The notes: generated by a model from the letters alone, not told the origin. 64,000 bases of DNA from Candidatus Binatia bacterium (GCA_022824205.1 JAJEAI010000171.1:1193-65192); one strand, 5' to 3'. Counted from the first letter of the stretch, positions 9,805 to 50,934 are shown. Numbers and translations are program-made.

Positions 9805-9946
9805 CCGCCCGGTCGATTCGAAGAAGAACGCCAAGGGCTTTGTCGAGACCTGGAGGGGCTACGCCGCACGGCGGAGAGCGGTGGAGTGGACGACGCCGGG
9901 CGTCGGGGGCGAGCCTGGCGCCCCGGGGCCGGGAGGCGGGCGCCCG

Positions 9947-29875: not shown

Positions 29876-30464
29876 TCACGCTCCGGACTGACGATTCACC
29901 TCGACCTCCACGTTCCGGATCCTTTCCATCAACGCATCGAACCGCGGTGCCTCGTCGCGAATGATGCTGGCGGTCCGCATCGCCTCGTAGTCCGATTCGA
30001 GAAGGACGAGTTGGTCTTCGTCGGGAACGAGCCTCAGCCGGCCGTCCAGGCAATGATTGTAGTTGGCGTAGGTGGCGTTGAAGAAAACCGTCTTATGACG
30101 GACGACATCCTCGAAGATAACGCGGTCGGTGAGGGCCGCTCGGCTGGCGTTGTGGTGGGCGAGGCACGCCAAGTCGAACCAGTGCCGAGATATCCGTTCC
30201 GGGTTCTGCGAAAGCCTGCGCCTGTGGCATTCGACATGGATGAGGGTGGCTGAAACGGTCGATGATTCCGTAGACCTTCGAAAGGGATGTGCCTCCCTTG
30301 AAGGCCATCGGGTGAAGATCCGGTATGGAGAAGAGTATCTGTAGAACCCAACAAATCCAGATGTCCTTCTCCAAGATGACCGCCGGCCGCCCTGACCGGA
30401 CGGCAATGGTCTCAAGGATGTCTCTCTGGTCTCGGGCATTCAACGAGAGGAAGGCTTCAGCCAT
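29876..30464 (-). pseudogene. AbiEii/AbiGii-family nucleotidyltransferase toxin, frameshifted
   Basis: N-terminal ORF (30093-30464): ...RPAVILEKDIWICWVLQILF...FKGGTSLSKVYGIIDRFS.... C-terminal part in another frame (29876-30439): ...HWFDLACLAHH.... Confidence 0.65.
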
Positions 30465-31065: not shown

Positions 31066-31523
31066 AGGACTCCAGCTTGTCTTAAAATACAGTGGTTTTT
31101 CGGACAAATCAAGAGCCTCGGAGAGGGGTGCTGTGCAAGAGCCTGTGTCAGCAAGGGAGAGGGTACTCCAGTGGGTTGACCGAGGCGCACAACGGGTAAA
31201 CGCCAGGATCAGTCTCGATGATTTCGAGCCCCTCCCGAGTTCAATCAACCCCGTTCGTCGGTGATAAGTTCGTAGCTGGTACTGCGCCCGCGGAGATTAT
31301 GGGCACCATTCTCCGCAAACCTCCCTCATCAGGATGTTGTTGCACCAATTCTGGAGACTGCGGCGAAGGGCTGTCGATGTCCGGCCGCTGATTGGAAGTA
31401 CGGGTCCCATGGTCTGACTTTGCCCTAAGGAGAGTCATCGGAGAACATTTTTCAGAGATCTAAGCATATGTTAGGATTATTCATATTCAATAGCTAGTTT
31501 TGCAGGACTTAGGAGCAGTTCTC

Positions 31524-33086
31524 ATGTCCTCTAATAAATTTAGCAGCAGCACTCACCTCCCGAATCATTTTTCAGGCCCCATAACCGTTTTTCAGGAGCG
31601 CCGGCTGTCAGTGCCGGCTACCCCAGCCGGTTATGCCGCACTCATCGGAGCCTACGGTCTGCGGGTACCGGTGCCGCGTACCCTGAGCGCCACGGGGGAA
31701 CGGCACAGGATCATTGAAGAAGGCGGCTGGCGCATCTATTCGCCGCGTCATGCGCCGAAACCCAGCCTGGAGGGCCACCTGACCTTCGCCCTCAAGCACG
31801 AGGGGCTCGACCTCTTGGTCCTCAAGCGCCTGTTTGCCGCCACGGGTCCGGGACCCGTCGAGAATCTGGTCAGGGTTAAGCCGACGGGCGCCTACGCTCG
31901 ACGCGTTTGGTTTCTCTACGAGTGGCTGACCGGACACCGGCTTGACTTGCCCGACGCCGAACGCGGGGCGTACGCTTCGGTCGTCGATCCGGGCCGCCAG
32001 TATGCCGCCCGCCCCGAGACCTCCAGGCGGCATCGGGTCAAGAACAACCTGCCGGGTACGCCGGCATTCTGTCCGCTGGTGTTTCGCACCGAAACCCTGG
32101 AACGTTTTGCGGCCATGGAGTTGCAGGCGCGGGCGCGGGAGGTCGTGGACGCGGTCCCGAAAGACCTGTTGGCGCGTACCGCGGCGTTTCTGCTGCTGAA
32201 GGATTCCAGGTCCAGCTTCGCCATTGAAGGCGAGCATCCGCCCCAGGACCGTATTCAGCGGTGGGGCCGGGCCGTAGGCGAGGCCGGACGCCGGCCGATC
32301 GATCTTGACGAGCTGTTGCGCCTGCAACGCATCGTCATCGGCGATGCCCGCTTTGTACAGCTCGGACTGCGCACGGAAGGCGGCTTTGTCGGTCAACGGG
32401 ATCGCGAGTCGGGGGCGCCGATCCCCGACCATGTCAGTGCTCGATCCGAGGATCTGGCTAGCCTCGTCGAAGGGCTGATCGCGTTCGACCAAGGGGCCGC
32501 GCAACAGCTCGATCCCGTCGTGGCCGCGTCGGTCATCGGCTTCGGTTTTGTCTACATGCATCCGTTTGAGGACGGCAACGGCCGCATCCACCGTTACCTG
32601 ATCCACCACGCCCTCGCCCGGCGCGGGTTCAACCCGCCCGGCGTGGTGTTCCCGGTATCGGCGGCCGTGCTGGAACGGATCGACGACTATCGCGCCGCAC
32701 TCGAAGACTATTCGCAGCGGTTGCTTCCCGTGGTGGACTGGGAACCCACCGGGAACGGCAATGTACGGGTGCTCAACGATACCGGTGATTGTTACCGTTT
32801 CTTCGACGCCACGCCACAGACCGAGTTTCTATACGGGTGCGTGCAGCAGACAGTCGAGCGGGATCTGCCGGAGGAAGCTGCCTTCCTGAAACGCCATGAG
32901 GGGTTTCGTACGGCATTGAGTCTGCTGGTCGACATGCCCGAAAGGGTGTCCGACCTCCTGTTCCGCTGCCTCCACCAGAATGGAGGGAGGTTGTCCCGCC
33001 GCCGCAGGGAACGGGAATTCGCCGCGCTGACCGATAATGAAGTGGAGCGCATCGAAGCGGCCTATCGCGAGAATTTCCAAGCCTGA
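31524..33086 (+). CDS. Fic-family protein (AMPylator-type, HPFxxGNGR motif)
   Basis: ...YMHPFEDGNGRIHRYLIHHAL...; AT-rich promoter and SD aggagcag. Confidence 0.85.
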   Translation: MSSNKFSSSTHLPNHFSGPITVFQERRLSVPATPAGYAALIGAYGLRVPVPRTLSATGERHRIIEEGGWRIYSPRHAPKPSLEGHLTFALKHEGLDLLVLKRLFAATGPGPVENLVRVKPTGAYARRVWFLYEWLTGHRLDLPDAERGAYASVVDPGRQYAARPETSRRHRVKNNLPGTPAFCPLVFRTETLERFAAMELQARAREVVDAVPKDLLARTAAFLLLKDSRSSFAIEGEHPPQDRIQRWGRAVGEAGRRPIDLDELLRLQRIVIGDARFVQLGLRTEGGFVGQRDRESGAPIPDHVSARSEDLASLVEGLIAFDQGAAQQLDPVVAASVIGFGFVYMHPFEDGNGRIHRYLIHHALARRGFNPPGVVFPVSAAVLERIDDYRAALEDYSQRLLPVVDWEPTGNGNVRVLNDTGDCYRFFDATPQTEFLYGCVQQTVERDLPEEAAFLKRHEGFRTALSLLVDMPERVSDLLFRCLHQNGGRLSRRRREREFAALTDNEVERIEAAYRENFQA

Positions 33087-34643: not shown

Positions 34644-37600
34644 TCAATGTCGCAGCCTCTGGTCGATTTCCGCTTCGTCGTCTTGCCGTAGCGCCTCCCG
34701 GTCGTAGTCGGCCGCGATATTCTCCAGCATACTCCCCACGTAGGGGTAGTGAGGGCTCCGCTGTCTGGCCCAGCTTCGATACTCCTTCGCAAGGTCGCGT
34801 TCCTGCTCCCCTCCCTCCCCGATGGCGCGCGAGACCACGCCGCGTCCATTGTGGATGCCGATGCTGAATCCTGAACCGATATCCGGGGATCCAATCTGTT
34901 CCATCGCTTCGCATACTGCAAGACAAGGCTTGATGCCGTCGTTATCGGCCGGAGCCCTCGACAAAATCTGACCGATATAGTGATCTCCGATTTTCACGCG
35001 GCCATACTCCGCGCATAGTCGCCGCGCCTCGGCTATCCACTGAGACAACACCTCCACATCAATGTCGCCTCCTTCCCCGATACCCGGAACAAGGCTGATC
35101 CGTTCAAGAAGCCCATAAGCGGCGGCAGTCAGTGCGGCCCTTTTCTCGGTGTCTTCGGTTTGCCATTCAGGAGGATCCTGTCCTCCGTCGTCACGTTTGA
35201 ATACAAGTGCCAGGACTTGAACAAAGCCAAAAGGAGATTCGGAGAGCCACTGCTCTAGGTTGGGAATCCCGTGCTCACTGTATTCCAACGTTTGGATATA
35301 CATAAATTCCAATCGTACCATCTCGTCTCGGCTGACGTCGCCGCGGCCGTTGAGTTCGCTCAATGCCTCTGAGATATAGTGACTCTCAAGCCTATATTGG
35401 TCCGCGGATTCAGTGCCTGCGGTGCCGGCATCGAAGAGCAGACGTTTCAGCCGCAACGACTCGATTTTGGACAACTCCAGGTGCGCAACGTGGAATGCAG
35501 CACGGGGACGTTTCACGTCCAGTAGGCGATCGATGAGCTCAATCAGTTCCGCCTCGTCGTAACGGTTCCATTCCGGGACGACCGCCCGCCAATAGTGATC
35601 TTGGACCTCCGCGTCGTACCGGTCGAGCAGGCGCCACGTGCGTCGCCCTAACGGAGCGCAACGGTATAGTCGGGCGATCTGAGCGGTGTCAGCGTCCACG
35701 GCGTCAGCCGTAAGGAGAGTGCCGCGCGCGTCGTCGCTGGCGGACCAGAGAAACCCCCGAATGCATAACTCGGCCTTCTCCCGCAGATGGTCGGTGACAG
35801 AAAGGCACTGCCTCAGAAAATCAACTCGCGCATCTTCCTCTGGGATGCAGGATTCCAACCCTGCCCCAACGACACCGGGGGCGCCGGTATCCGACAGTAA
35901 CGCGGTGACGCCCTCGAATCCGCGTGCGGTCCATATCTCCTTCATCGCAGCAGTGCGGAGCCTGCGCGTTGTCTCCGCGTCCTTCTCGTAGTCGCGTTCT
36001 TCGTCCTCGATTTCGTCGGAGGAAGGCTCAATCCAGGAATTCGTGAACAGCCAAGCATGCCGGACCACCGGATCCCGTGGTTCCAGCCGATCGTATGCCA
36101 CGCGCGCCCGGTCTACCGCCGTACCTTGCAGGCCGTGCCGACGACCGCGTCGGGTAAACGCGAGCCGGCGAAGCCGCTCTCGAAGATCGGCTTTGGCCCT
36201 GTCGTCCGTTTCCGAGTCCGCCCATGTATCGATCAAGTCCCAAACCGTGTTCTGGCCTTCGTCGGGCAATTCCTGAATTCGCTCCAGGAGATCTCCAAGC
36301 GTCCGTTGGTCATGCTTCGGCCATTCGAGGGCGAGCGCGAGTGCCTTGCGCCTGAACTCATGGAATTGTCCCGCCGTTACGTTAGCGCTCGGCGAGTCGT
36401 CCCGCCAGCGCGGACGGTAGCTGGGCAGCGCCATTTGGGGGCCGGTATCCAACTGTGCGACACAAACTTGCCAGCCGATATCCGGAAACCGCTTCGTCAA
36501 CGTCTTAAGGGCCGCTACCCGTTCCGCGAGCGAAGCGGATGTCTGCGGTAACCACGACCGGTAGAGCGCGGCAAGGCTGGCAGAGGGTTTGTTTGCCCAG
36601 TTGTCGGTGATCGTGATTGTCGACAGCCGCGCGAGTATCAAGCTCACGCGCCCGAGATGATTCCAGGCGAGACAGTCCAAGGCCCACAATAGTCCCGTTC
36701 GCAGGCATCGACCGAAAGGGCCGCTTTCGGCGGGCTTGAGCAGGCCGAAGACGGTTGGCTCCGGCTCTCGCAAATCGGTTTCGATCAGCTTCAGAAACGT
36801 GTCCGGAGCGGCCTCGGCATAGTTTGGAAGATCGTCCTGGTGCGAAAGCAGCTTGTCAATTGTCAGCGGCGTGAGCAGCCGTTGGATGATAGAGGAAACC
36901 CGAGCGTCGAGATCGACACCCAGCCGGTTCCGGAACAGCGTGTCGCCGTGGACCGAGAGGAGCACCAGCGTTTCGCGGATGCCCACTCGCAGTGCGGTGG
37001 AGTGATCGCGTACCTTGCCATGCACGTTGGCGAGCCATCTCTCGTCTTCCGGCAATTCCAGCGCGGGATCGGTTTCCGAAAGCACTCGTTCCGCTACTGA
37101 GAACAAATTGTCGAGATCCGATTCGGTCACGAATCTGGCAATCCCGAACAGGGAGTCGATCCGTGAGACCACTCCCCGATATTCCCCTGTCGACCATAGG
37201 GGTGAGTCTTCGAGAGCCAACAACTCCATGACGCCGGATTCCATGTCGTTGGCGTCGCCCCCCCAGCCGAGTCGCCGGACAATTTCGCAGTCGGCTGGAG
37301 AGGTCTTACGCCAAGCACCAACCAGCGCCGCCGGCAGCAACTTCCGCGCCGTCTGAGCGTCCTCCGCCCAGGCAGGGCTACGGACCGCCGGGCTCGTGGA
37401 TAGCCGTCGGCGCAGGACGGTCGGTGATCGACCCGATTCCCGGGCGAGCAGGTCAATCTTGTCATTGGGTAGTTCCATCGATTCCAGGGCGTCCGAGAAG
37501 TCTTTCCAACCCGGAAGCCCGAGCCTGATGTCGGAATTGGCGTTTACATCGTTACCGGGCCGGACAATGACGCAGTGACAACGCCGGTGGAGATCCCCGA

Positions 37601-38720
37601 TATGCGTTTCGACTTGGTCGTTGTGAACGATTGCCATGCGCGGGGCGGCATTCGATTCATGAAACCGTCGCACGGCTTCAGGTGTGTCGAACACGAGCGC
37701 GCCGGTGCCCGGCTCGTCTGTTTCAGACTTGGCCTCGCCGACAAGACAACACAGGAAAGCAAGCGCCTCATCGCGAGAGTCGGCAGCCACGATGAAAGGT
37801 CGCATCGGCGGTTCGCCCAGCCAACGCCGGAACTCGGCAGAGAAATCCCGGGTCGCTGCATTAAACAGAGCAGGTGAAAGCACCGGGTCGCAGATTTCGG
37901 CCCAATCGGACCAGCATCGTTCGAGCGAGCGATAGCCACTATCGTAGTTGTCGAGACGTTCAGCGAACCAGATTTGCACCGGCGCAGACTGCTCAAGCCA
38001 TTGCTCCAGATCATCCGCATCATGGGCGTGAACATCCTTCCAGTCACCGAGGGCCGCCTTTTCGTCCCGCCATGTTTCTTTCCCCGGCCAGTTGCGCGGT
38101 GTCACGAAGACGAACGTCATGTCGCGACGTTCCTGTGGTGGAACCGACTTCACACGAGCGTCGTAGTCGTGCTGCGCCTTGCGTTTGGGGTCTTGGTTGC
38201 AACCGAACTCCCAGCCGGACTTGCCTTCCGGTATCCATGGCGTCGGCGTCTTGGCCTGTACGACACCGTCCCATCCACGCCGTTCGGCATTGCCGAAGGC
38301 GGGGAAGTCGACATGGGTGAGGTCGCGCCCGGTGGAGTGAATCAGCCGCCGCAGCAGCGCTGGAAGTTCTTGCCGCGCATTGATCTGGTTCGCCCAGCGG
38401 TCTATTTCCCCGGCCCTGACTGAGGCGAGATCCGGCGCGTGCCGCCCAGCGACCACTGGTCGCCGCATCGCATCCCCCTGGCGGTCGTATCGTGTCTGGA
38501 AGTCCAGCAGAGCCTCGCGGTCCGCTCCGAAGGCACGCTCCAATCGCAACGCCATCTCCTGTGACAGCGCGGCTTTGCCGTTCAGGAAGTTAGACAACGC
38601 CGGTCGTCCTATCCCAAGCAATGTGGCGGCCTTGGTGACCGTCATGCCCTCCGGGATCACATGTCGCCTGACATATACGCCGGGATGGATCGGCCTCTGT
38701 TTTGCCCCATGTGGGATCAT
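34644..38720 (-). CDS. Large (1358 aa) protein with N-terminal HigA-type XRE HTH domain; remainder uncharacterised
   Basis: N-terminus ...IHPGVYVRRHVIPEGMTVTKAATLLGIGRPALSNFLNGKAALSQEMALRLERAFG.... No P-loop, nuclease or peptidase motifs found by eye. Confidence 0.7.
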   Translation of the reverse strand: MIPHGAKQRPIHPGVYVRRHVIPEGMTVTKAATLLGIGRPALSNFLNGKAALSQEMALRLERAFGADREALLDFQTRYDRQGDAMRRPVVAGRHAPDLASVRAGEIDRWANQINARQELPALLRRLIHSTGRDLTHVDFPAFGNAERRGWDGVVQAKTPTPWIPEGKSGWEFGCNQDPKRKAQHDYDARVKSVPPQERRDMTFVFVTPRNWPGKETWRDEKAALGDWKDVHAHDADDLEQWLEQSAPVQIWFAERLDNYDSGYRSLERCWSDWAEICDPVLSPALFNAATRDFSAEFRRWLGEPPMRPFIVAADSRDEALAFLCCLVGEAKSETDEPGTGALVFDTPEAVRRFHESNAAPRMAIVHNDQVETHIGDLHRRCHCVIVRPGNDVNANSDIRLGLPGWKDFSDALESMELPNDKIDLLARESGRSPTVLRRRLSTSPAVRSPAWAEDAQTARKLLPAALVGAWRKTSPADCEIVRRLGWGGDANDMESGVMELLALEDSPLWSTGEYRGVVSRIDSLFGIARFVTESDLDNLFSVAERVLSETDPALELPEDERWLANVHGKVRDHSTALRVGIRETLVLLSVHGDTLFRNRLGVDLDARVSSIIQRLLTPLTIDKLLSHQDDLPNYAEAAPDTFLKLIETDLREPEPTVFGLLKPAESGPFGRCLRTGLLWALDCLAWNHLGRVSLILARLSTITITDNWANKPSASLAALYRSWLPQTSASLAERVAALKTLTKRFPDIGWQVCVAQLDTGPQMALPSYRPRWRDDSPSANVTAGQFHEFRRKALALALEWPKHDQRTLGDLLERIQELPDEGQNTVWDLIDTWADSETDDRAKADLRERLRRLAFTRRGRRHGLQGTAVDRARVAYDRLEPRDPVVRHAWLFTNSWIEPSSDEIEDEERDYEKDAETTRRLRTAAMKEIWTARGFEGVTALLSDTGAPGVVGAGLESCIPEEDARVDFLRQCLSVTDHLREKAELCIRGFLWSASDDARGTLLTADAVDADTAQIARLYRCAPLGRRTWRLLDRYDAEVQDHYWRAVVPEWNRYDEAELIELIDRLLDVKRPRAAFHVAHLELSKIESLRLKRLLFDAGTAGTESADQYRLESHYISEALSELNGRGDVSRDEMVRLEFMYIQTLEYSEHGIPNLEQWLSESPFGFVQVLALVFKRDDGGQDPPEWQTEDTEKRAALTAAAYGLLERISLVPGIGEGGDIDVEVLSQWIAEARRLCAEYGRVKIGDHYIGQILSRAPADNDGIKPCLAVCEAMEQIGSPDIGSGFSIGIHNGRGVVSRAIGEGGEQERDLAKEYRSWARQRSPHYPYVGSMLENIAADYDREALRQDDEAEIDQRLRH

Positions 38721-38889: not shown

Positions 38890-39201
38890 ATGAGGGTTGT
38901 CATCGATTGCAACGTCCTGGTTTCGGCAGCTCGGTCTGGAGGAGTTTGTGGCAAGATCATTGTCGAGGCGATACGTGACCATGAGGTCGTCATTGCCAAG
39001 CCCATTGTAGAGGAATACGACGCGATTGCCGGTCGACTCGCGGTCTTCGGTCTCAATGACCCCGATGATGAAGTCTATCTGGCAACCGCGGTGGCTGGCG
39101 GCGCTGTTCTCATCACCGGCAACAGGCGGGATTTCGTGAAACCGCGGTACGGGCCGGTCGAGATCATCTCTCCTCGTGCATTTCTGGAGCGACCGGAATG
39201 A
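38890..39201 (+). CDS. PIN-domain protein (putative TA toxin), no adjacent antitoxin
   Basis: MRVVIDCNVLVSAARSGG..., 103 aa. Confidence 0.7.
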   Translation: MRVVIDCNVLVSAARSGGVCGKIIVEAIRDHEVVIAKPIVEEYDAIAGRLAVFGLNDPDDEVYLATAVAGGAVLITGNRRDFVKPRYGPVEIISPRAFLERPE

Positions 39202-39268: not shown

Positions 39269-39598
39269 TTACGAGCCTCCCTTGCTACGCCGAGGCGCTA
39301 GACCGCCTTCCCGCCTACCGCCCCGTTCCCTACGAAGCCGGGTGATGTCGGCGATAACGTCTTCCATGATCTCGTCCTCGGAGCGACCGGCGTCCTCGGG
39401 CGAGAGTTCAATTCGGGTGAGAATGGAAGCAACTTGGTCGGCGGCCGCGTTACGGTCCACCACTTCCTTGGGACGAAAAAGGATGCCGTCTCCAACCACG
39501 GTTGCCTCCAAGAGGTCGCCCTCATGCAGATCGAGCCCTCTGCGCAGTTTGGCCGGAATGGTGACTTGGAACTTCGGCTTCACGGTGACTAGAGACAT
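39269..39598 (-). CDS. AbrB/MazE/SpoVT-family DNA-binding protein (antitoxin-like), convergent with the PIN gene
   Basis: MSLVTVKPKFQVTIPAKLRRGLDLHEGDLLE.... Confidence 0.65.
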   Translation of the reverse strand: MSLVTVKPKFQVTIPAKLRRGLDLHEGDLLEATVVGDGILFRPKEVVDRNAAADQVASILTRIELSPEDAGRSEDEIMEDVIADITRLRRERGGRREGGLAPRRSKGGS

Positions 39599-39703
39599 GG
39601 TAAGCCTCGCGTAGGAAAGTAGTAAAGTTGTCCTATCACGGGGTGCGTATATACGCAATATCGGACCGCCCGACACGTGGTCACGGCTCGCCCTCTGACT
39701 TGG

Positions 39704-41269: not shown

Positions 41270-42666
41270 GCGCCGGCCGCTCCGTTCTCCGACGGCCTCG
41301 GCGCGCCGCCCGCTCCGTACTCCAGCCGCTCCAGCCACGTGCGGTAGAAGCCGTGGAACATGCCCTCGTGCTCCCAGTCCGGGCAGGACGCCGCCGCCTC
41401 GAAACCCAGTTCGCGGGCGTCCCGGTCGGGGCCGGCCACCATGACGTCCATGCCGCGGGTCATGTCGTTCCACTGGCTTGGCGGTCCCAGGGAGCCGTCC
41501 TGGATGGCTTCGAGGGCGGCGGCATCGTCCGACGTCGCCATCCCGGCCGTCAGGTAGAAGTCCTCGAACTTCCTGAGACGCGCGGCCCGTGCCGTGTCGC
41601 TCTCTCCCTTGGGCGCGATGCAGTAGACCGTGACCTCGGTCAATCGGGGCGACACCGGCTTCACGAACCGGATCTGCGTCGACGGGTTGTCCATCAGCAT
41701 CACGTTGGGAAAGAGGTAGAGGTTGCGGCCGCGGTTGAGTATCCACTCCACCTCTGCCGGCTCGAGACTCTCTACGAGCCACGCCCGCGCTTCGTAGATC
41801 GGACGGACATCCGGCGTGGTGTGCATCGCCCACAACCCCATGTGCCCGTTGCCCAGGTCGTAGGTGCCGCTGGGCACCTTGCCCTTGATGCGCCCGGACT
41901 CGGTCCGGCGCATGCCGGCGGTGGTGTCCCGGGCGTCGCGCTGGGCCACGGTGGCGGCGAAGACGCTGTGGAGGGTGGTCACGTGGTAGCCGTCGACGCT
42001 GTTCTCGGCCTGCAACTTCCAGTTGCCGTGGACCACGTAGGTGGAGCAGCCGGGCACCACCTCCAGCCCGTCCCGTCCCTGATCGGCCAGCAGGTCGATC
42101 CAGCGCGCCGCCGCCCCCAGATGGTCCCGGAGCGGGGGCACGTCGCTCCGCAGGCTCCCGAACACGAACCCCTTGTAGGAGTCGAGGGCGCCGATCCTCT
42201 GCAGGTTGAAGCGCTCGCGCGCGCCTTCCGAAACCGGGTAGCCCAACTCTTCGTTCTTGATCTTGACGCAGCGTCCACCGCGGTCGTACACCCAGCCGTG
42301 GAAGCGGCAGGTCAGCACGTTGGCGCTACCCTGCTTGAGGGGGGTCAGCACCGCGCCCCGATGGGAGCAGACATTGATGAAGCAGCCCAGCGATCCGTCG
42401 GTCTGGCGCATCACGAAAACCGCCTGGCGGCCGATTTCCGTCGACCAATAGTCGCCCGGCCTCTCCACCTGGCTTTCGTGGCAGAGAAACACCCAGCCGC
42501 CCTCGAAGATGCGCTCGATCTCCGCCTGAAAGACCGCATCGTCGGTGTAGACCGCCCGGTCGACGCGAAAGACCCCCTCGTCGACCCGGTCATCCACCAG
42601 GTGGCGGAAGCCGTCCCGTTCCGCCCCACGGTTCATCTCATGGCCCGTTCGTTCGTTCCGCATCAT
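41266..42666 (-). CDS. Rieske non-haem-iron aromatic-ring-hydroxylating dioxygenase alpha subunit
   Basis: CSHRG...CRFHGW Rieske motif plus catalytic domain. Start chosen at MMRNER... Confidence 0.85.
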   Translation of the reverse strand: MMRNERTGHEMNRGAERDGFRHLVDDRVDEGVFRVDRAVYTDDAVFQAEIERIFEGGWVFLCHESQVERPGDYWSTEIGRQAVFVMRQTDGSLGCFINVCSHRGAVLTPLKQGSANVLTCRFHGWVYDRGGRCVKIKNEELGYPVSEGARERFNLQRIGALDSYKGFVFGSLRSDVPPLRDHLGAAARWIDLLADQGRDGLEVVPGCSTYVVHGNWKLQAENSVDGYHVTTLHSVFAATVAQRDARDTTAGMRRTESGRIKGKVPSGTYDLGNGHMGLWAMHTTPDVRPIYEARAWLVESLEPAEVEWILNRGRNLYLFPNVMLMDNPSTQIRFVKPVSPRLTEVTVYCIAPKGESDTARAARLRKFEDFYLTAGMATSDDAAALEAIQDGSLGPPSQWNDMTRGMDVMVAGPDRDARELGFEAAASCPDWEHEGMFHGFYRTWLERLEYGAGGAPRPSENGAAGA

Positions 42667-42866
42667 TGCCTTCTTCACCGTATGGCCGCCGTCTCGGTGC
42701 ACAACTCCACGAATTGCAGTAAACTGCCCGGAACGGTGTCCGTCGTGGTCCGACGACACGCTTCTCCTTCGGTGAAAACTACAGGAAGTTGGTCGCACGG
42801 ATCAAGGACGGATGGCGCCCGCGAACGGTGCGTTAGCGAATCGACCAAGCTGGAATTCAACCACGA

Positions 42867-44210
42867 ATGACGGAACGCGTTTCCATACTCGCCATCGGCG
42901 ACGTGCATCTGGGCACCGCCTGTTCGGGAGTGCCCGAGGGAATGGCGGACCGCGGCGTCGACCCGCATGAGTTGACGCCCGCGGCCGCGCTCGCGGGTTG
43001 CGTGGATCTGGCGGTGAAGGAGCGTGTCGACGCCGTGCTCTTCGCCGGCGACGTCGTGGAGAGCACCAACGCGAGATTCGAGGCCATGGCGCCCCTCGAG
43101 GAGAGCGTCCGGCGGCTGGTCGACGCCGGAATCGAGGTCATCGCCGTTGCCGGCAACCACGACGTCGAGGCTCTGCCGCGGCTCGCGGCTCTGATCGACG
43201 GCTTCACCCTGTTGGGCGCCGGCGGCCGCTGGGAGACGCGAACGATACCCAAGGACCGGCCCCCGGTGGCCCAGGTGGTGGGCTGGTCTTTCGCTGAAGA
43301 GCGCGTGCGCCACAGCCCGGTGGCGGAGCTTCTGAAACAGCCGTTGGCTGTGCCCTCGCCGCCGGTCCCCAGGATCGGTCTGCTGCACGCGGATCTGGAC
43401 GCGTCCGGCGGACACTACGCACCCATCCGGCAGTCGGAGCTGGACGACACCGGCTATGGCGCCTGGCTCCTGGGGCACATCCACAAGCCCTCGATCGAGG
43501 GGCTGGCGGCGTCGAACGGGACCCGGCCGTGCGGTTATCTCGGTTCGCTCGTGGGTCTCGACTTGTCGGAAACGGGTCCTCACGGTCCCTGGCTCCTCGA
43601 TGTATCTCGTGAGGGCGCCCTCGCGTGCAGACAGATTCCCCTCGCCCCTCTCCGATGGGAGCGCGTGACGGTGTCCGTGGACGGGCTCGAACATGTGGAC
43701 GATGTGCCCGACCGTTTGATGAGCGAAGCCGAGACCCGGGTGCGCCGGCTCGGGGAAGTGGACCGCCTCCCCCGAGCCCTCGGCCTGCGTGTGCATCTCA
43801 CCGGGACGACCGGCTGTTACGAGGGACTCCGGCGCTGGATCGAGGGCGAAGCATGGCGCTCCATGGGGCGGGTGGTGGAAGGCACCGGCGTCTTCTTCAG
43901 CGACGTCGTCGACGCCATGGCGCTGCCGTTGGACCTGGAGGCCATTGCCGCGGGAGACGATCCCGCCGCCCTGGTGGCCCAGAGGCTCCTGGTGCTCGGA
44001 CGCGACGACGAACGGTCGAGGAAGCTCCTCGCCGAGGCCCGCGCGGAGATGGACGGAACCGCTCGCGAGTTGGTGTGGCAGCCCGTTCACGAACACCGCC
44101 ATGCCGCGGACCCCCTGTCGGACGACGCCCTGCGCGACGTTCTGGTGCGGGCGGGAAGGGCGGTCCTCAGCGCCATGATGGCCGGCCGCGAGCAAGGCGA
44201 TTCGACGTGA
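42867..44210 (+). CDS. SbcD/Mre11-like metallophosphoesterase (DNA repair exonuclease-like)
   Basis: GDVHLG, AGDVVE, GNHD and GHIH phosphoesterase motifs. Divergent C-terminal half. Confidence 0.8.
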   Translation: MTERVSILAIGDVHLGTACSGVPEGMADRGVDPHELTPAAALAGCVDLAVKERVDAVLFAGDVVESTNARFEAMAPLEESVRRLVDAGIEVIAVAGNHDVEALPRLAALIDGFTLLGAGGRWETRTIPKDRPPVAQVVGWSFAEERVRHSPVAELLKQPLAVPSPPVPRIGLLHADLDASGGHYAPIRQSELDDTGYGAWLLGHIHKPSIEGLAASNGTRPCGYLGSLVGLDLSETGPHGPWLLDVSREGALACRQIPLAPLRWERVTVSVDGLEHVDDVPDRLMSEAETRVRRLGEVDRLPRALGLRVHLTGTTGCYEGLRRWIEGEAWRSMGRVVEGTGVFFSDVVDAMALPLDLEAIAAGDDPAALVAQRLLVLGRDDERSRKLLAEARAEMDGTARELVWQPVHEHRHAADPLSDDALRDVLVRAGRAVLSAMMAGREQGDST

Positions 44211-47200
44211 AACTGAAGCGGCTCGCCATCAATCGGCTGCCGGGCATCAGCCAACCCTTCGAGATCGAAGCGTCCGGGGCGGGCCTCCACGTCGTGTTCG
44301 GACCCAACGGGATCGGCAAGTCGAGCATCTGCCGCGCCGTCGAGGGGTTGTACTGGGAAGACCGCCATCCTTCTCCACTCACGTCGGTAACCGGGGAGTT
44401 CGAATGGGACCGTGAGTCGTGGTGGGTACACCGCGACGGGACGCGCGTCACTTGGCAACGCAACGGCACCGGCAGCGTTTCTCCGAGTCTTCCCTCGTCC
44501 CACCATGAGCGTTGCTTCTTCCTGCGCCTGTGGGACCTGATCGAGCCCTCCCGTGACGGCGCCGCCGACATCGCCGCGGAGATCCGGCGCCAGATGTCCG
44601 GCGGATTCGACCTGGACGAGATTGCTTCCGGCCTCTTCCCCGGCGTGAGCCGCAACCAGGGCCGGCGGCAACGCGACGACTTCAACAATGCCTCGGAAGC
44701 GGTGGCGAAGACCGTGGCACGGCAGAGCGGCCTCCAGGGGCGCGCGGATCGACTCGGCAGGTTGAGGAGCGATCTCGTGGAAGCGGAAACCGCCGCCCGC
44801 CGGCGCCCCTTCGTGGAGCGCGCCATCGGGCTCGCGCGCCGCCGGAAGGAATTGGCCCGCGTCGTGGAACAGGTCGCGGCGCTGCCCGCGCCGTTGGCCA
44901 AGCTCACCGGCAAGGAGGTCGACGAGGTCCGGCGTTACCAAGACCAAGCGGGCACGTTCACCGAGCGGATGCGCTCGCTGGAAGAGGACTTGCGCCGGGC
45001 GCGCGATAACCGGCGGGAAACCGCCCTCGACCGCCCCGTCGATCGAGCCGAGCTTGCCGTGTGGCGCCAGAAGGCGGACGACCTGCGGCGCGCCGAACAG
45101 GCTCTCGATGTGGCGCGAAGCGAACGCGGGGCCACCGGGAGAGCGCTTGCCTCGGCTTTGTCGGCCGTGGGCGGAGCTGACGTTGACAGGATCTCGTTCA
45201 CACCGTTCGAACACGGCGAGCTGTTCGACTTCCTGCGTTCCAGCCAGGCCCACGGCGCCCGTGCCGGCGCCATTCGGGAACGGTTGCGTCTCATCAAGCA
45301 CGTTGACCTGCCAGAAGGCGCCGAACAACAACTCGCCACGTACCGGGAGGCAACGGAAGCCCTGCGGTCGTGGCTGCGCGTGCCCGAGCCGGACGGTCCT
45401 GTCCGCCGGCTGCGCAACCGGTGGCCCTGGCTCCTGCTTGCTCTCGCGCTGGTGCTGGCCGGCGCCGGACTGGCCGCGATGGCCGATCCCGGCGCCAGCT
45501 TCATCGGCTCCCTCGTCGGTGATCTCGTCCCGCCCGTGCCGTCCGGACTCGCTTCCCTTTCCGCGCTGCTTCTGGGGGTGGGAGGCGGCGTTGCCTTGGC
45601 CGTACTCCTGATGGGCGATCAGCGGCGCTCCATGGCGGCCAGAAGGGCCGCGCGGGAGGCGTTCGAAAGGCTGGCCGCCGACGGCCCCGACAAGTGGGAG
45701 CTTTCGTCCGTGGCGGTCCTCCTGCGCCAACTGGAGCGGCGGATCGCGGCGGCCGAGGCGTGGTTGCAACGGGTGCGCGACCGGGACGTGGAACGGCAAG
45801 CGCTCGAAAACGAGTTGAAGGGTTTGTCCGGACAGGAGGCCGCCCTCGCGGCCCGCCGGGAGGAGCTCCAGGACAGACTGGGCATGGATGCGCTGCCGCA
45901 CGACGCGGAGCTGGTGGACTTTGCCCGCGCCCTGGACCAGCTTCGCCAGACCCGTGCCGGCGACGAAGCCGCGGCGGGCAAGTTGGAAGCCCTTGAGCGA
46001 CAACATGCGTCCCTCCTGGCGGAACTGGCCGCGGTCCTGGAGCAGCATGGCGAGCCGGCGCCGGGAGATGCTGCCACGGCGGCGGCGCGTATCCACAACG
46101 TGGCGGACCGCAATACGCGGTTGGATAAGGCGATCTCCGACGAACGCCACGTGGCCGCTCAACTCGAGGAGAATACCGCCAACCGCGAAGCAGCCCTCGC
46201 CGCCATCCGGCGGATCTACTGCGAGGCGTCGTTGAAGGAGGGAGATCTGGACGGCCTCCTGTCGCTCCTCGGCTCCTTGCAGCTCTATCGCGACCTGGTC
46301 CACGAAAAGACGAGCCTCGATGGCCAGATCGGCCTGGACCGCGCGGATCTCGAAAAGGCCGGGGAATCCGCCCTGGCGGAATGCGACGAGCCCACCCTCC
46401 ATGAGATCAAGCAGGAACTATCCGGCCAGGAGTCGAGCGCCGATGAGTTGAGGGCCGAGATTGCCGAGATCACCGCCGAGATGAACGCGGCCAGGCGCGG
46501 CAACGGGATGCAGGAACTTCTTGCCGCCCGTGAAGCCGCCCGCGCCGGGTTGCGGGATCTCCGCGACCGGGCGCTGTACGCGAAGGCGGGGAGATTCTTC
46601 ATCCAGGCGGTCGAAGCGGAGTATGAGCACAACCGGCTGCCGCGCGTCTTCGAACGCGCCCGCAACCATTTTTCCGGGTTCACACATCACAACTTCCAAC
46701 TGGAGCTGGACAAGGGCAGCGAGACTCCCCGGCTGTACGCGCGGGAATCGCGCAGCGGGGAGACGCGGGAACTGGATGAGCTGTCGGACGGCACACGCGC
46801 CCAACTGCTGTTGGCGGCGCGCATCGCCTACGCCGAGGAGGTGGAGCAGGGCAAGGTCCTGCCGCTGTTTCTGGATGAAGCGCTCGACCAGAGCGACCCC
46901 CAGCGGTTCGAGGCCATCGTGCGCAGTCTCGGGCGCGTGGCCCGGGAACAGGACCGCCAGATCTTCTATCTCACCAGCGACCCATTGGACGTCCACCGCA
47001 TCAGGGACGCCCTCGGCAAGGAGGAGTGCCGCATCGCCGCCGCCATCGACCTGGGCCGGATACGAACGAAGGCCGCGAGCGTCAGCGGCGCGGATGCGCT
47101 CCGCGTCGATCCGGCACCGACGGTTCCGGCGCCCGATCATCTTTCCCTGGAGGAGTACGGTGCGGCCCTCGCCGTGCCCGAGTTCCGTCCGGATCTCGGC

Positions 47201-47773
47201 TACGCGGAGCAGCATTTCTACTATGTGCTGTGGGATGACCTGAACCTGCTGCGCGATTTCCTGTTGAACCGCATCGAGCGAGCCGGACAGTGGCAGACGG
47301 TCCGCGGCACGCCCCTCGCCGAGAGCCTGGGGTCCGGTTCGATCACTCCCGAGGAGATCACCGCGCGGCTGGAGCTGCTGGAAGTCTTTTGCGAGTTGTG
47401 GACGCAGGGAAGGAGCCGTCCCGTCGACCGCGCCGCGTTGGAGGACAGCGACGCCCTCACCGAACGCTACCTGGAGGACGTGGTGACCATCGCACGGGAA
47501 CTGGACGGTGATCCCGTGAGACTCCTCGCTGCCCTCGACGAAGCCCGGGACCCGAGGCTGCGCGGTTTCCGCCAGACCAGCGTCGAGCGCCTGCAGCGTT
47601 ATCTGACCGACGCCGGCTACCTCGACGAACGCCCCATTCTCACCGAGTCCGACCTCACCCTGCGCGCGTGCATCACCCCCGTCGCCGCCCGCATGCCAGA
47701 CCGCGTCACCAACGACTGCCTCAGGCGCTGGTGGGGTTGGGCGCGGAACGCGTCGGAACTCGGAGCGCGATGA
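44207..47773 (+). CDS. SMC/SbcC/YhaN-like AAA ATPase with internal hydrophobic segments (~1188 aa)
   Basis: GTG start overlapping the SbcD stop. Walker A GPNGIGKSS, signature LSDGTRAQ, Walker B LFLDEALD, long coiled-coil. Predicted TM stretch ...WPWLLLALALVLAGAGLAAMA...LLGVGGGVALAVLLMG. No CxxC zinc hook seen. Confidence 0.8.
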   Translation: MKLKRLAINRLPGISQPFEIEASGAGLHVVFGPNGIGKSSICRAVEGLYWEDRHPSPLTSVTGEFEWDRESWWVHRDGTRVTWQRNGTGSVSPSLPSSHHERCFFLRLWDLIEPSRDGAADIAAEIRRQMSGGFDLDEIASGLFPGVSRNQGRRQRDDFNNASEAVAKTVARQSGLQGRADRLGRLRSDLVEAETAARRRPFVERAIGLARRRKELARVVEQVAALPAPLAKLTGKEVDEVRRYQDQAGTFTERMRSLEEDLRRARDNRRETALDRPVDRAELAVWRQKADDLRRAEQALDVARSERGATGRALASALSAVGGADVDRISFTPFEHGELFDFLRSSQAHGARAGAIRERLRLIKHVDLPEGAEQQLATYREATEALRSWLRVPEPDGPVRRLRNRWPWLLLALALVLAGAGLAAMADPGASFIGSLVGDLVPPVPSGLASLSALLLGVGGGVALAVLLMGDQRRSMAARRAAREAFERLAADGPDKWELSSVAVLLRQLERRIAAAEAWLQRVRDRDVERQALENELKGLSGQEAALAARREELQDRLGMDALPHDAELVDFARALDQLRQTRAGDEAAAGKLEALERQHASLLAELAAVLEQHGEPAPGDAATAAARIHNVADRNTRLDKAISDERHVAAQLEENTANREAALAAIRRIYCEASLKEGDLDGLLSLLGSLQLYRDLVHEKTSLDGQIGLDRADLEKAGESALAECDEPTLHEIKQELSGQESSADELRAEIAEITAEMNAARRGNGMQELLAAREAARAGLRDLRDRALYAKAGRFFIQAVEAEYEHNRLPRVFERARNHFSGFTHHNFQLELDKGSETPRLYARESRSGETRELDELSDGTRAQLLLAARIAYAEEVEQGKVLPLFLDEALDQSDPQRFEAIVRSLGRVAREQDRQIFYLTSDPLDVHRIRDALGKEECRIAAAIDLGRIRTKAASVSGADALRVDPAPTVPAPDHLSLEEYGAALAVPEFRPDLGYAEQHFYYVLWDDLNLLRDFLLNRIERAGQWQTVRGTPLAESLGSGSITPEEITARLELLEVFCELWTQGRSRPVDRAALEDSDALTERYLEDVVTIARELDGDPVRLLAALDEARDPRLRGFRQTSVERLQRYLTDAGYLDERPILTESDLTLRACITPVAARMPDRVTNDCLRRWWGWARNASELGAR

Positions 47774-48459
47774 TGTCGTTGGGGCGAGGCTTTACGATTG
47801 GTCTCTACGTCATCGTGCCCCCCGAGTACAGGCGGCTCGGCTGTTTGCCAGCGGAGCAATTCGTCCCGGCTCTCATGGAGCGCCGGGGCCTCCCGTACTA
47901 CGTCGGCCTTCTGTCCGCAGCGCAGTACCACGGTGCGGCTCACCATCGTCCGCAGGAATTCCAGGTGCTCATCGAGAAGAACAGACCCGTGTTCGCCTGC
48001 GGTTCGGTCAAGGTGGCCTTTGTCGCGCGCTGGAACATGCTTGTCGTCCCGGTTCAGAGCTTCAATAATCCTCGGGGAACGGTTCTGGTTTCGACCGTGG
48101 AGGCCACGGCGGTCGACGTTGTCGGATACATGCACCGCGCTGGCGGAGTGGATAGGGTCACCGGAGTCTTCTCCGAACTCGCCGACGACATGGAGCCCCA
48201 GCGCCTCGTCGATGCTTCGAATACGGCGTCGATCCTCTGGGCCCAGCGCCTGGGCTACCTCCTTGAACATGTCGGAGCCGGAAAAAAGGCCGCGCTTCTC
48301 AAGGATCACGTTCGAAAGATCGCACGAAACTTCACGAGACTGCTGCCGGGCGGGAATGTCGAAGGTGCGCCGCGATCGAATGACTGGCGGCTGTACATCA
48401 ACGCGGATGTCGACGGGATATGTGCAGCCGTGTCGGAGAACGGCGTCAGTTTACTGTGA
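47770..48459 (+). CDS. AbiEi/COG5340-like putative antitoxin/regulator-family protein (tentative), translationally coupled (ATGA) to the SMC-like gene
   Basis: ...YYVGLLSAAQYHGAAHHRPQEFQVLIEK... resembles the conserved core of AbiEi-type antitoxins. The assignment is from memory only. Confidence 0.45.
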   Translation: MMSLGRGFTIGLYVIVPPEYRRLGCLPAEQFVPALMERRGLPYYVGLLSAAQYHGAAHHRPQEFQVLIEKNRPVFACGSVKVAFVARWNMLVVPVQSFNNPRGTVLVSTVEATAVDVVGYMHRAGGVDRVTGVFSELADDMEPQRLVDASNTASILWAQRLGYLLEHVGAGKKAALLKDHVRKIARNFTRLLPGGNVEGAPRSNDWRLYINADVDGICAAVSENGVSLL

Positions 48460-49642
48460 GCGACCCCGCAGGCGACTGCGCCGGCAGCCCAAGAACTCTC
48501 ACCTCATCAATCAAGTATTCGACTTCCTTCCTGTCTCTCTCCGATAGTTGATCCGTATTTTGGATACCATAGACAAACCGAAGACTAAGGGTCTTTTTTC
48601 GCTTTGGATTCTCGATGGAGACGTTGCTCTTGGTCCAAGAAACACCGTCTTTGGGGTGATTCCCGCAAAAGGCAATTCGGTGGTTCCAACGTTCGTTGTC
48701 AAACTTATAGTACAAGTTTAGCGAGCTGTCGCAGTTATGTATATTACGTGTTCGTGGGTTCGAGGTGGATGTTTTCCAGAATTCGATCCGCACTCGTGAA
48801 TATGAGGAGACGTCCACGCTCGGTAGTTGTGCTGGGTTCGATGTTATGTACTTCCTGGTTGGCGGATTACCCTTCGGTATCACGTTCGCCGCAGAAGACG
48901 TTGAATTTGCCCCGCCTGCAGTAATTTCCCACTGCGGTGCGCCTCCGGCGGGTTCAAAAAATGGAAGGAACGGGTTGCTGTTGCGTTGTCGCAAGTCGAA
49001 GTTCACAGACACGAGCTCGTCGGCATTTGCCGATGTGACTTTGCGGGGTTCGGTGCTTGTTTGGGCGGGTCTCCGAACGTCAGGTAGTGAAACAGTAATC
49101 CAGTGGGCCAAGTCAGCGACGGCGCCATCACCGAATGTCAAGTCAACTCGCTGCGTCGTGCCGCAGCCGAACAGGCGGGGATGTGATGAACTTTTTTCAC
49201 ACGGATAGAAGACTAAAGGCCATTTTTGTGCTTGGAAAATAGGGCATTCTCCGACTATTGCAAGGTCTGCGTTCCAGGACGTTAGTAACGAGGCCGCCAC
49301 ACGGTCGATGTCCTTAGATGTGCTTGACGCGTAAGCGCGTGGGGGGTTTTCGGAAACACGGGCCGAACGGTGCAATGAAATCGCCTCAACCTTCTGAACG
49401 TTTTGCGCCAAAGCGGTTTGGCATTTTCCTCCCTTGTCGTTCTTCAGCCAGGAGAGGACCACGCGGCGCGTGTTGGAGGGCCATTGGGGGTCGGACACGA
49501 CGTATTTGATGTTGCCGAGCCCACGATGGACGCGGTGAAAAGAGGGGATTAGGTCGAGGACGGGGGTAAGCCAACTGATGAAAAGTCCGGCGAACAATGC
49601 AACGAGTAGTCTGATGGATTGGGCCGCGAAGAGCTTGTTCAA
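48446..49642 (-). CDS. Low-GC hypothetical protein with N-terminal TM anchor (putative TTG start)
   Basis: AT-rich 48.46-49.7 kb block. Frame continuous from (M)NKLFAAQSIRLLVALFAGLFISWLTPVL... to ...EVRVLGLPAQSPAGSLTVN*. The upstream 49.65-50.67 kb part of the track ORF is antisense to the aminotransferase and is rejected. Confidence 0.4.
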   Translation of the reverse strand: MNKLFAAQSIRLLVALFAGLFISWLTPVLDLIPSFHRVHRGLGNIKYVVSDPQWPSNTRRVVLSWLKNDKGGKCQTALAQNVQKVEAISLHRSARVSENPPRAYASSTSKDIDRVAASLLTSWNADLAIVGECPIFQAQKWPLVFYPCEKSSSHPRLFGCGTTQRVDLTFGDGAVADLAHWITVSLPDVRRPAQTSTEPRKVTSANADELVSVNFDLRQRNSNPFLPFFEPAGGAPQWEITAGGANSTSSAANVIPKGNPPTRKYITSNPAQLPSVDVSSYSRVRIEFWKTSTSNPRTRNIHNCDSSLNLYYKFDNERWNHRIAFCGNHPKDGVSWTKSNVSIENPKRKKTLSLRFVYGIQNTDQLSERDRKEVEYLIDEVRVLGLPAQSPAGSLTVN

Positions 49643-49761
49643 CAGACGTGGGGGGGCTCGGCGAGGACGATTGGAGGCGTGCTGAAACACACGGGCAGCT
49701 TTGAGTGACGGGCGACGGAGGAGCCGATAACGCCGAAGTTGTGGGGTTCGTCGCACCCAAT

Positions 49762-50934
49762 CTATCCTTCGCCATAAACGATCTCGATCGCCCGCAATGC
49801 CTCCTCCACCGCCACATCCGCCCCCTCTTCCCGCAGGATCTGTCCCAGCGCCTCCACCAGGGCGACGACGTTCTCTTTCCGGCTCGACTCGCCCATGAGG
49901 CCGATGCGCCAGGTCTTGCCGGCGAGGGCGCCCAAGCCGCCGCCGATCTCGATGTTGAAGTCGAGGAGCAGGCGCTTGCGGATGGCGCCGTCGTTGGCGC
50001 CCTCGGGGATCTTGACGCTGTTGAGCATCCACAGGCGGTGGCCTTCCTGGGAGGCGAGGGGGATGCCGAGGGATTGCAGGCCGGCGACCAGGGCTCGGTG
50101 GTTCAGCTCGTGGCGCGCGAAGCGGGCTTCCAGGCCTTCGCGTTCGATCTCGCTCAGGGCGGCGTGGAGGCCGTAGTTCATGGAGATGGGGGCGGTGTGG
50201 TGGTAGGCGCGCTCCTCGCCCCAGTAGCGCTCGATCATGGTGAAGTCGAGGTACCAACTCTTGACCTTGCTCTTGCGCCGCGCCAGCTTGTCGCGCGCCG
50301 CGGGGCCGAAGGACACGGGCGACAGCCCGGGAGGGCAGCTCAGGCACTTCTGCGTGCCGCTGTAGGCGGCGTCGACGTTCCAGGCGTCGAGGGTCACGGG
50401 GCATCCCCCCAGCGAGGTCACGGTGTCCAGCACCAGCAGGGCGCCGGCGTCGTGGGCGAGCCGGGAAATCTCTTCCACCGGCTGCAAGACGCCGGTGGAG
50501 GTCTCGGCGTGCACCAGGGTGACGATGTCGACCTTGTGCTCCTTGAGGACCTGCTCCACCTGCTCGGGCCGGATGATCTCGCCCCAGGGAGCCTCCACCT
50601 TGACGAGGTTCCCGCCCAGGCGCTCGACGATGTCGGCCATGCGCGTGCCGAACACGCCGTTGACGCACACGAGCACCGTGTCTCCCTCCTCGATGAGGTT
50701 CACGAGGCAGGCCTCCATGCCCGCGCTGCCGGTGCCCGACACCGGGAAGGTCAGCTCGTTCCCGGTGTGGAACAGCCAGCGCAGCATGGCCTTGTTCTCT
50801 TCCATGATCTTGAAGAATTCCGGGTCCAGGTGTCCGACCACGGGGGCCGACAACGCCTCCAGCACCGCCGGGTGGGGGTTGCTGGGGCCGGGTCCGAGGA
50901 GGATTCTCTTGGGCGGATTGAGCGGTGAGGCCAT
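49762..50934 (-). CDS. Class V aminotransferase (alanine-glyoxylate / serine-pyruvate aminotransferase)
   Basis: MASPLNPPKRILLGPGPSNPHPAVLEA...SGTQK... (PLP Lys). Confidence 0.85.
   Translation of the reverse strand: MASPLNPPKRILLGPGPSNPHPAVLEALSAPVVGHLDPEFFKIMEENKAMLRWLFHTGNELTFPVSGTGSAGMEACLVNLIEEGDTVLVCVNGVFGTRMADIVERLGGNLVKVEAPWGEIIRPEQVEQVLKEHKVDIVTLVHAETSTGVLQPVEEISRLAHDAGALLVLDTVTSLGGCPVTLDAWNVDAAYSGTQKCLSCPPGLSPVSFGPAARDKLARRKSKVKSWYLDFTMIERYWGEERAYHHTAPISMNYGLHAALSEIEREGLEARFARHELNHRALVAGLQSLGIPLASQEGHRLWMLNSVKIPEGANDGAIRKRLLLDFNIEIGGGLGALAGKTWRIGLMGESSRKENVVALVEALGQILREEGADVAVEEALRAIEIVYGEG

Follow-up and report, generated by a model that had tools for sequence, protein, structure and literature searches.

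The DNA analysed here, called the window, is a 64-kb stretch from a Candidatus Binatia bacterium. Our subject is a 229-aa open reading frame (ORF) in it that starts on the stop codon of an SMC-like ATPase gene, resembles AbiEi antitoxins and runs into a low-GC block. The window as a whole has a GC content of 0.653 and is an exact match to two public metagenome contigs (L001 and L002). It is syntenic with a Candidatus Binatia metagenome-assembled genome (MAG, L003) at 83-97% amino acid (aa) identity, and a contig from the same study site as the window (L009) shares ~90% nucleotide (nt) identity with it over the SbcD-like and SMC-like genes. Along the window, genes for an alcohol dehydrogenase and Rieske dioxygenase subunits (minus strand) are followed by an SbcD-like gene, the ATPase gene and the 229-aa ORF (all plus strand), the low-GC block and a class V aminotransferase gene (minus strand), beyond which lie tilS, ftsH, folP, glmM and pdxJ. 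The window proteins were compared with the profile libraries Pfam, NCBIfam and PADLOC-DB 2.0. The features at the locus are as follows.

42867-44210, plus strand: SbcD/Mre11-like metallophosphoesterase, 447 aa (PF00149, E 1.5e-11; TIGR00619 sbcd, E 2.3e-11, under the cut-off of that profile)
44207-47773, plus strand: Rad50/SbcC-like (SMC-like) ATPase of the YhaN/SbcE type, 1188 aa (PF13514 AAA_27, 26.3 bits against a cut-off of 22)
47770-48459, plus strand: the 229-aa ORF, whose product includes YYVGLLSAAQYHGAAHHRPQEFQV
48414-49761, no strand: low-GC foreign block of ~1.35 kb (GC 0.535 against 0.653 for the window; GC at the three codon positions 0.54/0.47/0.59 against a third-position GC (GC3) of 0.83-0.95 in the host)
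48446-49690, minus strand: gene for a 414-aa protein (414 codons open from GTG; 398 from TTG at 49642)
49762-50934, minus strand: class V aminotransferase (Pfam families on the L001/L002 gene calls; 97% aa identity to L003), which bounds the variable slot on the right as its conserved flank

AbiE modules consist of a COG5340 antitoxin (AbiEi) and a DUF1814 nucleotidyltransferase (AbiEii), and they are regarded as type IV toxin-antitoxin (TA) systems, for which type VII has recently been proposed. Judged by its sequence, the 229-aa ORF is a member of the AbiEi family by descent, and of the four features that define a functional AbiE module it lacks three. The preliminary description of this locus had noted the AbiEi-like core, and the likeness is confirmed by a Pfam match to PF09407 AbiEi_1 (E 8.4e-42; residues 25-166, aligned to positions 1-141 of the 142 in the profile) and by the PADLOC AbiEi profile (E 2.6e-67), which is matched over positions 53-256 of 260 only. 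A profile search of 47770-48459, as suggested at the time, recovered PF09407 and did not recover the winged helix-turn-helix (wHTH) domain PF13338 in Pfam, and PADLOC profile positions 1-52 are likewise unmatched. The proposal that the ORF encodes a regulator fails on this point, since the DNA-binding wHTH is missing. We considered that the domain might lie hidden in a different reading frame, or might have been joined to the SMC-like protein at its C-terminus; translation of the three upstream frames gave nothing wHTH-like, and the fusion was ruled out because the SMC C-terminus is colinear with that of L003, which has no abiEi.

A homologue search with the ORF product returned 4972 proteins, and the closest 120 were examined. 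Of these, 108 are 266 aa long, mostly with both PF13338 and PF09407, and are 72-87% identical to the query over ~90% of its length. Homologues of 223-255 aa were considered as a recurrent class with the C-terminal domain only and rejected: all keep the recognition-helix part of the wHTH and resemble start-site calls or partial truncations. A clean C-terminal-domain-only AbiEi was not found among the other 119 top homologues. A sequence search of the PDB with the AbiEi remnant gave no match. The public gene call of the remnant begins at the second ATG and gives a product of 228 aa (P0001), which is why looking up the exact 229-aa product returned no entry. In our alignment A1, family homology opens at YVIVPPEY, after a leader, and closes at ...NADV; homology to all abiEi loci ends at 48413. 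The ORF is accordingly divided into three parts.

47770-47805, plus strand: leader (MMSLGRGFTIGL, first 12 codons, including the ATGA overlap), from the former SMC-abiEi spacer and not from abiEi
47806-48413, plus strand: abiEi-derived segment, codons 61-263 of the 266-codon family, that is, the C-terminal antitoxin domain only (PF09407, PADLOC, alignment A1)
48414-48459, plus strand: novel 3' tail, DGICAAVSENGVSLL and stop in place of the family's ETEA and stop; it lies within the foreign block, and 14 bp of it are shared with the convergent gene at the 3' end of the latter

The truncation of the ORF is explained by a deletion that is visible in comparison with close relatives. In L009, the SMC-like gene is followed by a 69-bp spacer and then by a full abiEi gene of 266 aa. 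With blastn, window positions 42306-47799 align with L009 1-5487, and window positions 47806-48413 align with L009 5710-6317 at 91% nt identity (84% to L010 6179-6788); the intervening 222 bp of L009, which comprise 42 bp of spacer and abiEi codons 1-60, correspond to 6 bp in the window. An element of the form ...TTCATAA.GTGACGAAAAA.GCTACTTTAT..GTCATG is conserved 5' of abiEi in L009, L010, L011 and the alphaproteobacterial L012, and its position and its inverted ATAAAGT/ACTTTAT arms suggest that it is the abiE operator/promoter. Just the first ~15 nt of this element are kept in the window, the remainder being deleted. The window aligns with L003 up to position 47790. In L003, 89 bp separate the SMC stop and the aminotransferase stop, and they hold a degenerate trace of the abiE upstream element and no abiEi; therefore, the L003 genome lost abiEi altogether.

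The same comparison bears on the apparent coupling of the ORF to the ATPase gene. The start ATG at 47770 does share bases with the upstream TGA (cgATGAtg; ATGA at 47770-47773), as had been described, and co-translation had been read from it. An ATG also lies over the SMC TGA in L009 (GCGCGATGATGACG) and in L003 (CACGATGACG), and no ORF follows it in either. Thus, the ATGA 'coupling' is an accident of the ~220-bp deletion. The prior for an in-frame outcome of such a deletion would be roughly one in three. A scan for promoters and terminators gave no signal exceeding shuffled expectation, and a terminator between the SMC-like gene and the AbiEi remnant was not found. No Rfam family was matched at 47.4-50.0 kb. 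Neither direct nor inverted repeats bound the 2-kb insert, short chance-level repeats being the only ones seen, and the window contains no tRNA gene and hence no obvious integration site.

The toxin gene is missing from the window altogether. A tblastn search of the whole window with two cognate AbiEii proteins (from L012 and L014) found no AbiEii at E<=0.01, which bears out the earlier remark that none follows the ORF. In the unrelated genomes of L012, L013 and L014, the same AbiEi subfamily is followed by a 273-aa PF08843 AbiEii gene with a 4-bp overlap, and the canonical AbiEi-AbiEii pair of L012 and L013 adjoins a TrwC relaxase and an integrase. By tblastn, abiEii survives as codons 1-113 in L010, as codons 1-47 in L011 and as two short fragments in L009, and nothing is left in the window; in L015, from another lineage, abiEii has an internal deletion. 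The abiEii debris of the Binatia loci forms a decay series in which the toxin is lost first.

These comparisons lead to the following sequence of events. A canonical AbiE module, with operator/promoter, 266-codon abiEi and overlapping abiEii, most likely once lay directly 3' of the SMC-like gene, and abiEii was lost completely in the window lineage. The ~220-bp deletion then took the operator together with abiEi codons 1-60, which encode the DNA-binding wHTH, and the surviving C-terminal codons landed in frame behind the ATG already present over the SMC stop, giving the 229-aa ORF and its apparent ATGA coupling. The former place of abiEii is now filled by a low-GC gene that was acquired horizontally and lies on the opposite strand. 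The remnant would be unable to autoregulate, and no cis-encoded toxin is left for it to neutralise. In all probability it is a relic of recent origin on which selection has been relaxed; the most that translation by read-through would give is an antitoxin consisting of the C-terminal domain only.

Substitution patterns point in the same direction. The ratio of nonsynonymous to synonymous rates (dN/dS, omega) was estimated over 202 shared codons, and changes on the window branch were polarised with outgroups. The ratio is 0.12-0.18 family-wide and 0.31 between the window and L009. On the window branch, 13 nonsynonymous and 9 synonymous changes give an omega of ~0.47, which significantly exceeds 0.15 (P = 0.0065) and does not differ significantly from the neutral expectation (P = 0.07). 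Three of the 95 near-invariant family positions are changed in the window, compared with a mean of 0.86 in other homologues. Constraint on the remnant thus appears relaxed, and the codon data agree with a recent relic.

Several observations weigh against a simple relic and raise the question of whether the truncated protein still acts as an antitoxin. Neither a stop codon nor a frameshift interrupts the 203 codons that the remnant inherited, and these are joined in frame to the leader. Its usable ATG is preceded, at a distance of 4 nt, by a GGAG, so that termination-reinitiation after the SMC-like gene is mechanistically possible. The arrangement is the same in two samples (L001 and L002) and is therefore stable in the population. 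An omega of ~0.47, below 1, with only 3 of 95 conserved columns altered, leaves room for residual purifying selection, and the remnant may be weakly constrained. In Streptococcus agalactiae, the C-terminal domain of AbiEi by itself neutralises AbiEii and is fully antitoxic (PMC3985639). AbiEi neutralises by binding the toxin and inducing its auto-phosphorylation, and the antitoxicity loop residues, at positions 85-87, lie downstream of the N-terminal wHTH (bioRxiv 10.64898/2026.01.19.700257). Additionally, full-length solo AbiEi genes outlast toxin decay in L009, L010 and L011, suggesting a value without the cognate toxin. The remnant could accordingly be imagined as an exapted orphan antitoxin, a C-terminal-domain-only AbiEi that is translationally coupled to the SMC-like gene and neutralises AbiEii-type toxins in trans by binding and auto-phosphorylation, an 'anti-addiction' function against incoming AbiE elements or paralogous toxins. 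However, the 64-kb window holds no intact AbiEii, and its sole other AbiEii-like gene (29876-30439) is disrupted, belongs to another subfamily and has its own DUF6088 antitoxin. An in-frame fusion is also not a rare accident, the remnant is under significantly weaker constraint than the family at large, and the 120 closest homologues include no other clean form with the C-terminal domain only. Moreover, the single experimental study found that autoregulation required full-length AbiEi and that truncated AbiEi proteins were unstable (PMC3985639). We consider such an exaptation unlikely and prefer the relic.

The SbcD-SMC-AbiEi trio is not conserved. Co-occurrence of the three genes in other genomes had been put forward as a check on a three- or four-gene defence-like operon, and the sole other adjacency was found in L009. 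The SbcD-SMC pair occurs without AbiEi or any other conserved third gene in five loci (L003-L007), among them a paralogous clade at 61% identity and, in the MAG of L003 itself, a further copy. In L010 and L011, a full-length AbiEi gene occupies the syntenic site right after the Rieske genes with no adjacent SbcD/SMC. A single novel anti-phage operon comprising the SbcD-like nuclease, the SMC-like ATPase and an AbiEi-like regulator, possibly with the membrane protein of the low-GC block, would agree with the ATGA and GTGA overlaps that join the three plus-strand ORFs and with the gene order shared with L009. The site is a defence hotspot in relatives, and the SbcD-SMC cassette, which differs in position between relatives and has a GC3 (0.78-0.84) somewhat below that of core genes, may be accessory; in L010, an SMC-like tail lies on the opposite side of the alcohol dehydrogenase-Rieske cluster. 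However, the pair and AbiEi occur apart, and abiEi of L009 is full length and separately promoted, with its own spacer and operator, and hence uncoupled. The window AbiEi lacks the DNA-binding domain needed for a regulator, and the membrane-protein gene is on the opposite strand, differs in base composition and is absent from every relative. Neither SbcD nor SMC has a specific PADLOC match, and nothing links the cassette to AbiEi in function. We regard a single operon, which the comparative data contradict, as extremely improbable. In all likelihood, three unrelated units meet here, namely an SbcEF-like cassette, an AbiE scar and a separately acquired cargo gene, and they form neither an operon nor a new multi-gene defence system. 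What stands of the defence context proposed earlier is the cargo that relatives carry at this site, described below.

Gene order and motifs place the first of these units, an autonomous pair of translationally coupled genes, in the YhaO/YhaN (SbcF/SbcE) type, with a putative function in repair. The GTG start of the ATPase overlaps the SbcD stop (GTGA), and the adjacency is conserved in six other loci (L003-L007 and L009). The ATPase has a Walker A motif (GPNGIGKS, residues 32-39), an LSDG signature at 859 and a Walker B motif (LFLDE) at 887, and long helical arms divide the head. Its translation showed no CxxC zinc hook; at the location of the hook, the apex of the coiled coil, lies a hydrophobic two-helix hairpin (residues ~405-472), and after Walker B follows a C-terminal extension of ~280 residues (~910-1188) with no domain match. 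Both the hairpin and the extension are conserved in L003-L007. In PADLOC, the SMC-like protein has partial ATPase-motif matches only (mad3, 2.8e-7; LmuB, 3.9e-7 over 46 residues), and the SbcD-like protein has no significant match. A sequence search of the PDB with the ATPase gave weak matches to the Rad50 head only. In Bacillus subtilis, YhaO/YhaN is an SbcCD-related pair for double-strand-break repair, and SbcE has a hydrophobic central domain (PMC2811018). A search of the literature for a connection between SbcE/SbcF and phage defence returned none. As a side observation, one MAG (L003 and L006; JAJDXX01 contigs 48 and 123) carries two SbcD and SMC-like cassettes with ~61-70% mutual identity; the ATPase/nuclease pair with the transmembrane (TM) hairpin therefore exists as paralogous copies within a genome.

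The low-GC block is horizontally acquired, foreign and independent of its neighbours in origin. GC falls to 0.50-0.58 at 48.4-49.7 kb against 0.65-0.72 in the flanks, and window positions 47791-49782 are an insertion relative to L003, where they have no counterpart and the slot measures just 89 bp. The foreign composition is confined to the right two-thirds of this insertion (48414-49761), which fill the slot together with the abiEi remnant. The preliminary description had recognised here an AT-rich, foreign-looking block with a convergent gene for a TM-anchored protein of ~399 aa, and this is correct: the GC dip, the absence of the block from L003, the 398 codons from the TTG at 49642 and a single strongly hydrophobic N-terminal segment are all observed. 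The gene is co-directional with the aminotransferase gene and 71 bp downstream of it. It has no obvious ribosome-binding site and is not called in the annotation of L001/L002. The protein had been described as having no recognisable domain, and indeed it matched nothing in Pfam, NCBIfam or PADLOC. A chance ORF was considered and rejected on the basis of homologues and invariant motifs. An exhaustive HMMER search found 83 relatives; homologues at E 8e-63, 1e-54 and 7e-50 were seen, and P0122 (39% identity, full length, E 8e-63), P0123 and P0121 belong to the family, which shares invariant STSNPR, HNCDSS, FVYGIQ and YLID motifs and two cysteines. A metagenome scan with a four-sequence alignment yielded two partial C-domain relatives only. 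The family is modular: the N-terminal module (~28-150) occurs elsewhere with TPR proteins, and the C-terminal module (~250-402) is part of large surface proteins that carry Ig, PASTA, NHL and InlB-type repeats.

The structure prediction that had been proposed for this protein revealed a jelly roll. The AlphaFold model (45-sequence alignment; mean predicted local distance difference test score, pLDDT, 73.5) has a TM helix at 17-46, a poorly resolved middle and a beta-sandwich at ~220-402 with pLDDT >90. From its basic N-terminus, the 414-aa protein thus runs through a single TM helix and a middle module of alpha/beta type, modelled at low confidence, to a jelly-roll domain at the C-terminus. 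With Foldseek, the sandwich matched the Eph-receptor ligand-binding domain (LBD), the meprin MAM domain and the carbohydrate-binding module (CBM) CBM22 (E 1e-7 to 1e-5; TM-score on target ~0.6), as well as CBM-like domains of phage tail proteins. The basic N-terminus, the single TM helix and the invariant cysteines suggest an outward-facing, probably periplasm-facing, membrane-anchored ligand-binding protein. The two other long homologues have a GC content far below that of their hosts, and both lie in accessory islands (L008 and L018). The one in L008 has an IS66 transposase on one side, by which it is truncated, and integrases on the other; the one in L018 lies among four TA pairs (MazE, RelE, Gp49 and PIN/Phd). 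We also observed that the L008 homologue (9606-10834) is longer than its gene call, with homology reaching upstream to ~9755 and a 5' end that is apparently cut by the IS66-family insertion (transposase 8101-9606).

The slot between the SbcEF-like cassette/Rieske cluster and aminotransferase-tilS-ftsH is a defence-island hotspot in Candidatus Binatia. In L009, abiEi is followed by SIR2-APAZ, a short prokaryotic Argonaute (pAgo), PDC-M66A/B (HipA_2 and DUF3037) and a type I restriction-modification S subunit. SIR2-APAZ and the short pAgo lie directly 3' of abiEi at L009 6607-11456 and at L011 5156-8337, and PADLOC assigns them to Aga_SIR2-PNTD (E 3e-194) and pAgo_I (E 7e-190), respectively. The same slot in L010 holds a 266-aa TIR-effector-like gene. 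As the window gene sits where these relatives hold SIR2-APAZ/pAgo or a TIR-like gene, it could itself be what the hotspot functionally carries, a novel factor for phage defence or exclusion at the envelope whose anchored jelly roll binds a surface glycan or a phage receptor-binding protein. All three (near-)full-length family members are in mobile or TA-rich islands at a GC content much below that of their hosts, and the C-terminal fold belongs to ligand- and glycan-binding modules that are also used in phage tail proteins. However, the protein has no similarity in PADLOC, the argument is guilt by association from three loci, other proteins with the C-terminal domain resemble ordinary surface proteins, and the gene has no clear ribosome-binding site and escaped gene calling in both public contigs. 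A defensive role is, on this balance, improbable. A composite account is quite improbable. In it, the gene would found a rare mobile family (TM anchor, novel alpha/beta module and jelly roll with the invariant HNCDSS and STSNPR motifs) that excludes phage at the envelope and is carried in defence, TA and mobile islands, and the adjacent C-terminal-domain-only AbiEi, produced from the SbcEF-like operon, would have been domesticated as an anti-addiction antitoxin that acts in trans.

Elsewhere in the window, features at ~28.9-39.7 kb suggest an accessory island of ~10 kb that contains DUF6414, Fic, a second AbiE-type module and a HigA-fusion gene. The second AbiE-type module (29876-31248, minus strand) belongs to a different subfamily and has a DUF6088/AbiEi_3_N antitoxin-like gene at 30457-31248 (PF19570, E 9e-28). 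Its AbiEii gene (29876-30439) is broken by a frameshift and an internal deletion, with the N-terminal KGGTSLSKVYGIIDRFS in one frame and PF08843 positions 155-238 in another, and the module is a further case of toxin decay with the antitoxin retained. It is flanked by genes for a DUF6414 protein (28958-29869, plus strand; PF19952, E 1e-26) and for a 528-aa Fic-domain protein (31500-33086, plus strand; HPFEDGNGR, PF02661). A gene for a 1358-aa protein (34644-38720, minus strand) has a GC3 below that of core genes; the first ~80 residues of its product form a HigA-type helix-turn-helix antitoxin domain (TIGR02607, E 3.5e-15), and the remaining ~1270 residues have no match in Pfam, NCBIfam or PADLOC. 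This gene adjoins a PIN_3 C-terminal fragment (38890-39201) and a MazE-like gene (39269-39676).

The locus carries a caution for the search for new defence systems. A stop/start overlap and a defence-flavoured domain beside an SMC-like ATPase mimic a new system, and close relatives reveal a decaying AbiE scar. The locus and its relatives also document TA decay in naturally occurring stages: the toxin is lost first (truncated four ways in four lineages), then the DNA-binding half of the antitoxin, until finally an operator trace alone is left. The Candidatus Binatia hotspot could be mined for cargo, and the rare membrane-anchored jelly-roll protein is the one item at the locus still without an explanation.

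Each unit of the locus can be set against a known system. Defence islands with short pAgo-SIR2-APAZ (SPARSA-type), PDC-M66 and TIR genes supply the cargo that fills the slot in L009, L011 and L010, whereas the window slot holds a single gene unlike any defence protein catalogued in PADLOC. The protein encoded there shares the predicted fold of its residues ~220-402 with galactose-binding-like jelly rolls (Eph receptor LBD, MAM, and CBM22/CenC-type CBMs), but identity is only 9-17%, there is no Pfam match, and the family is set apart by invariant motifs of its own and by its N-terminal module. The cassette resembles B. subtilis YhaO/YhaN (SbcF/SbcE) in its nuclease-then-ATPase order, AAA_27-type head, long helical arms, lack of a CxxC hook and hydrophobic central domain. 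It differs in that sequence similarity appears restricted to the ATPase head motifs and in that the window protein comes from a Binatia-like MAG and has the ~280-aa C-terminal extension. Compared with an AbiE module, the window ORF is without the PF13338 wHTH, the upstream operator region and the AbiEii partner, and its last four codons have been swapped for 15 unrelated ones; what it shares with that system is a bona fide PF09407 C-terminal domain, 72-87% identical to a widespread 266-aa AbiEi subfamily.

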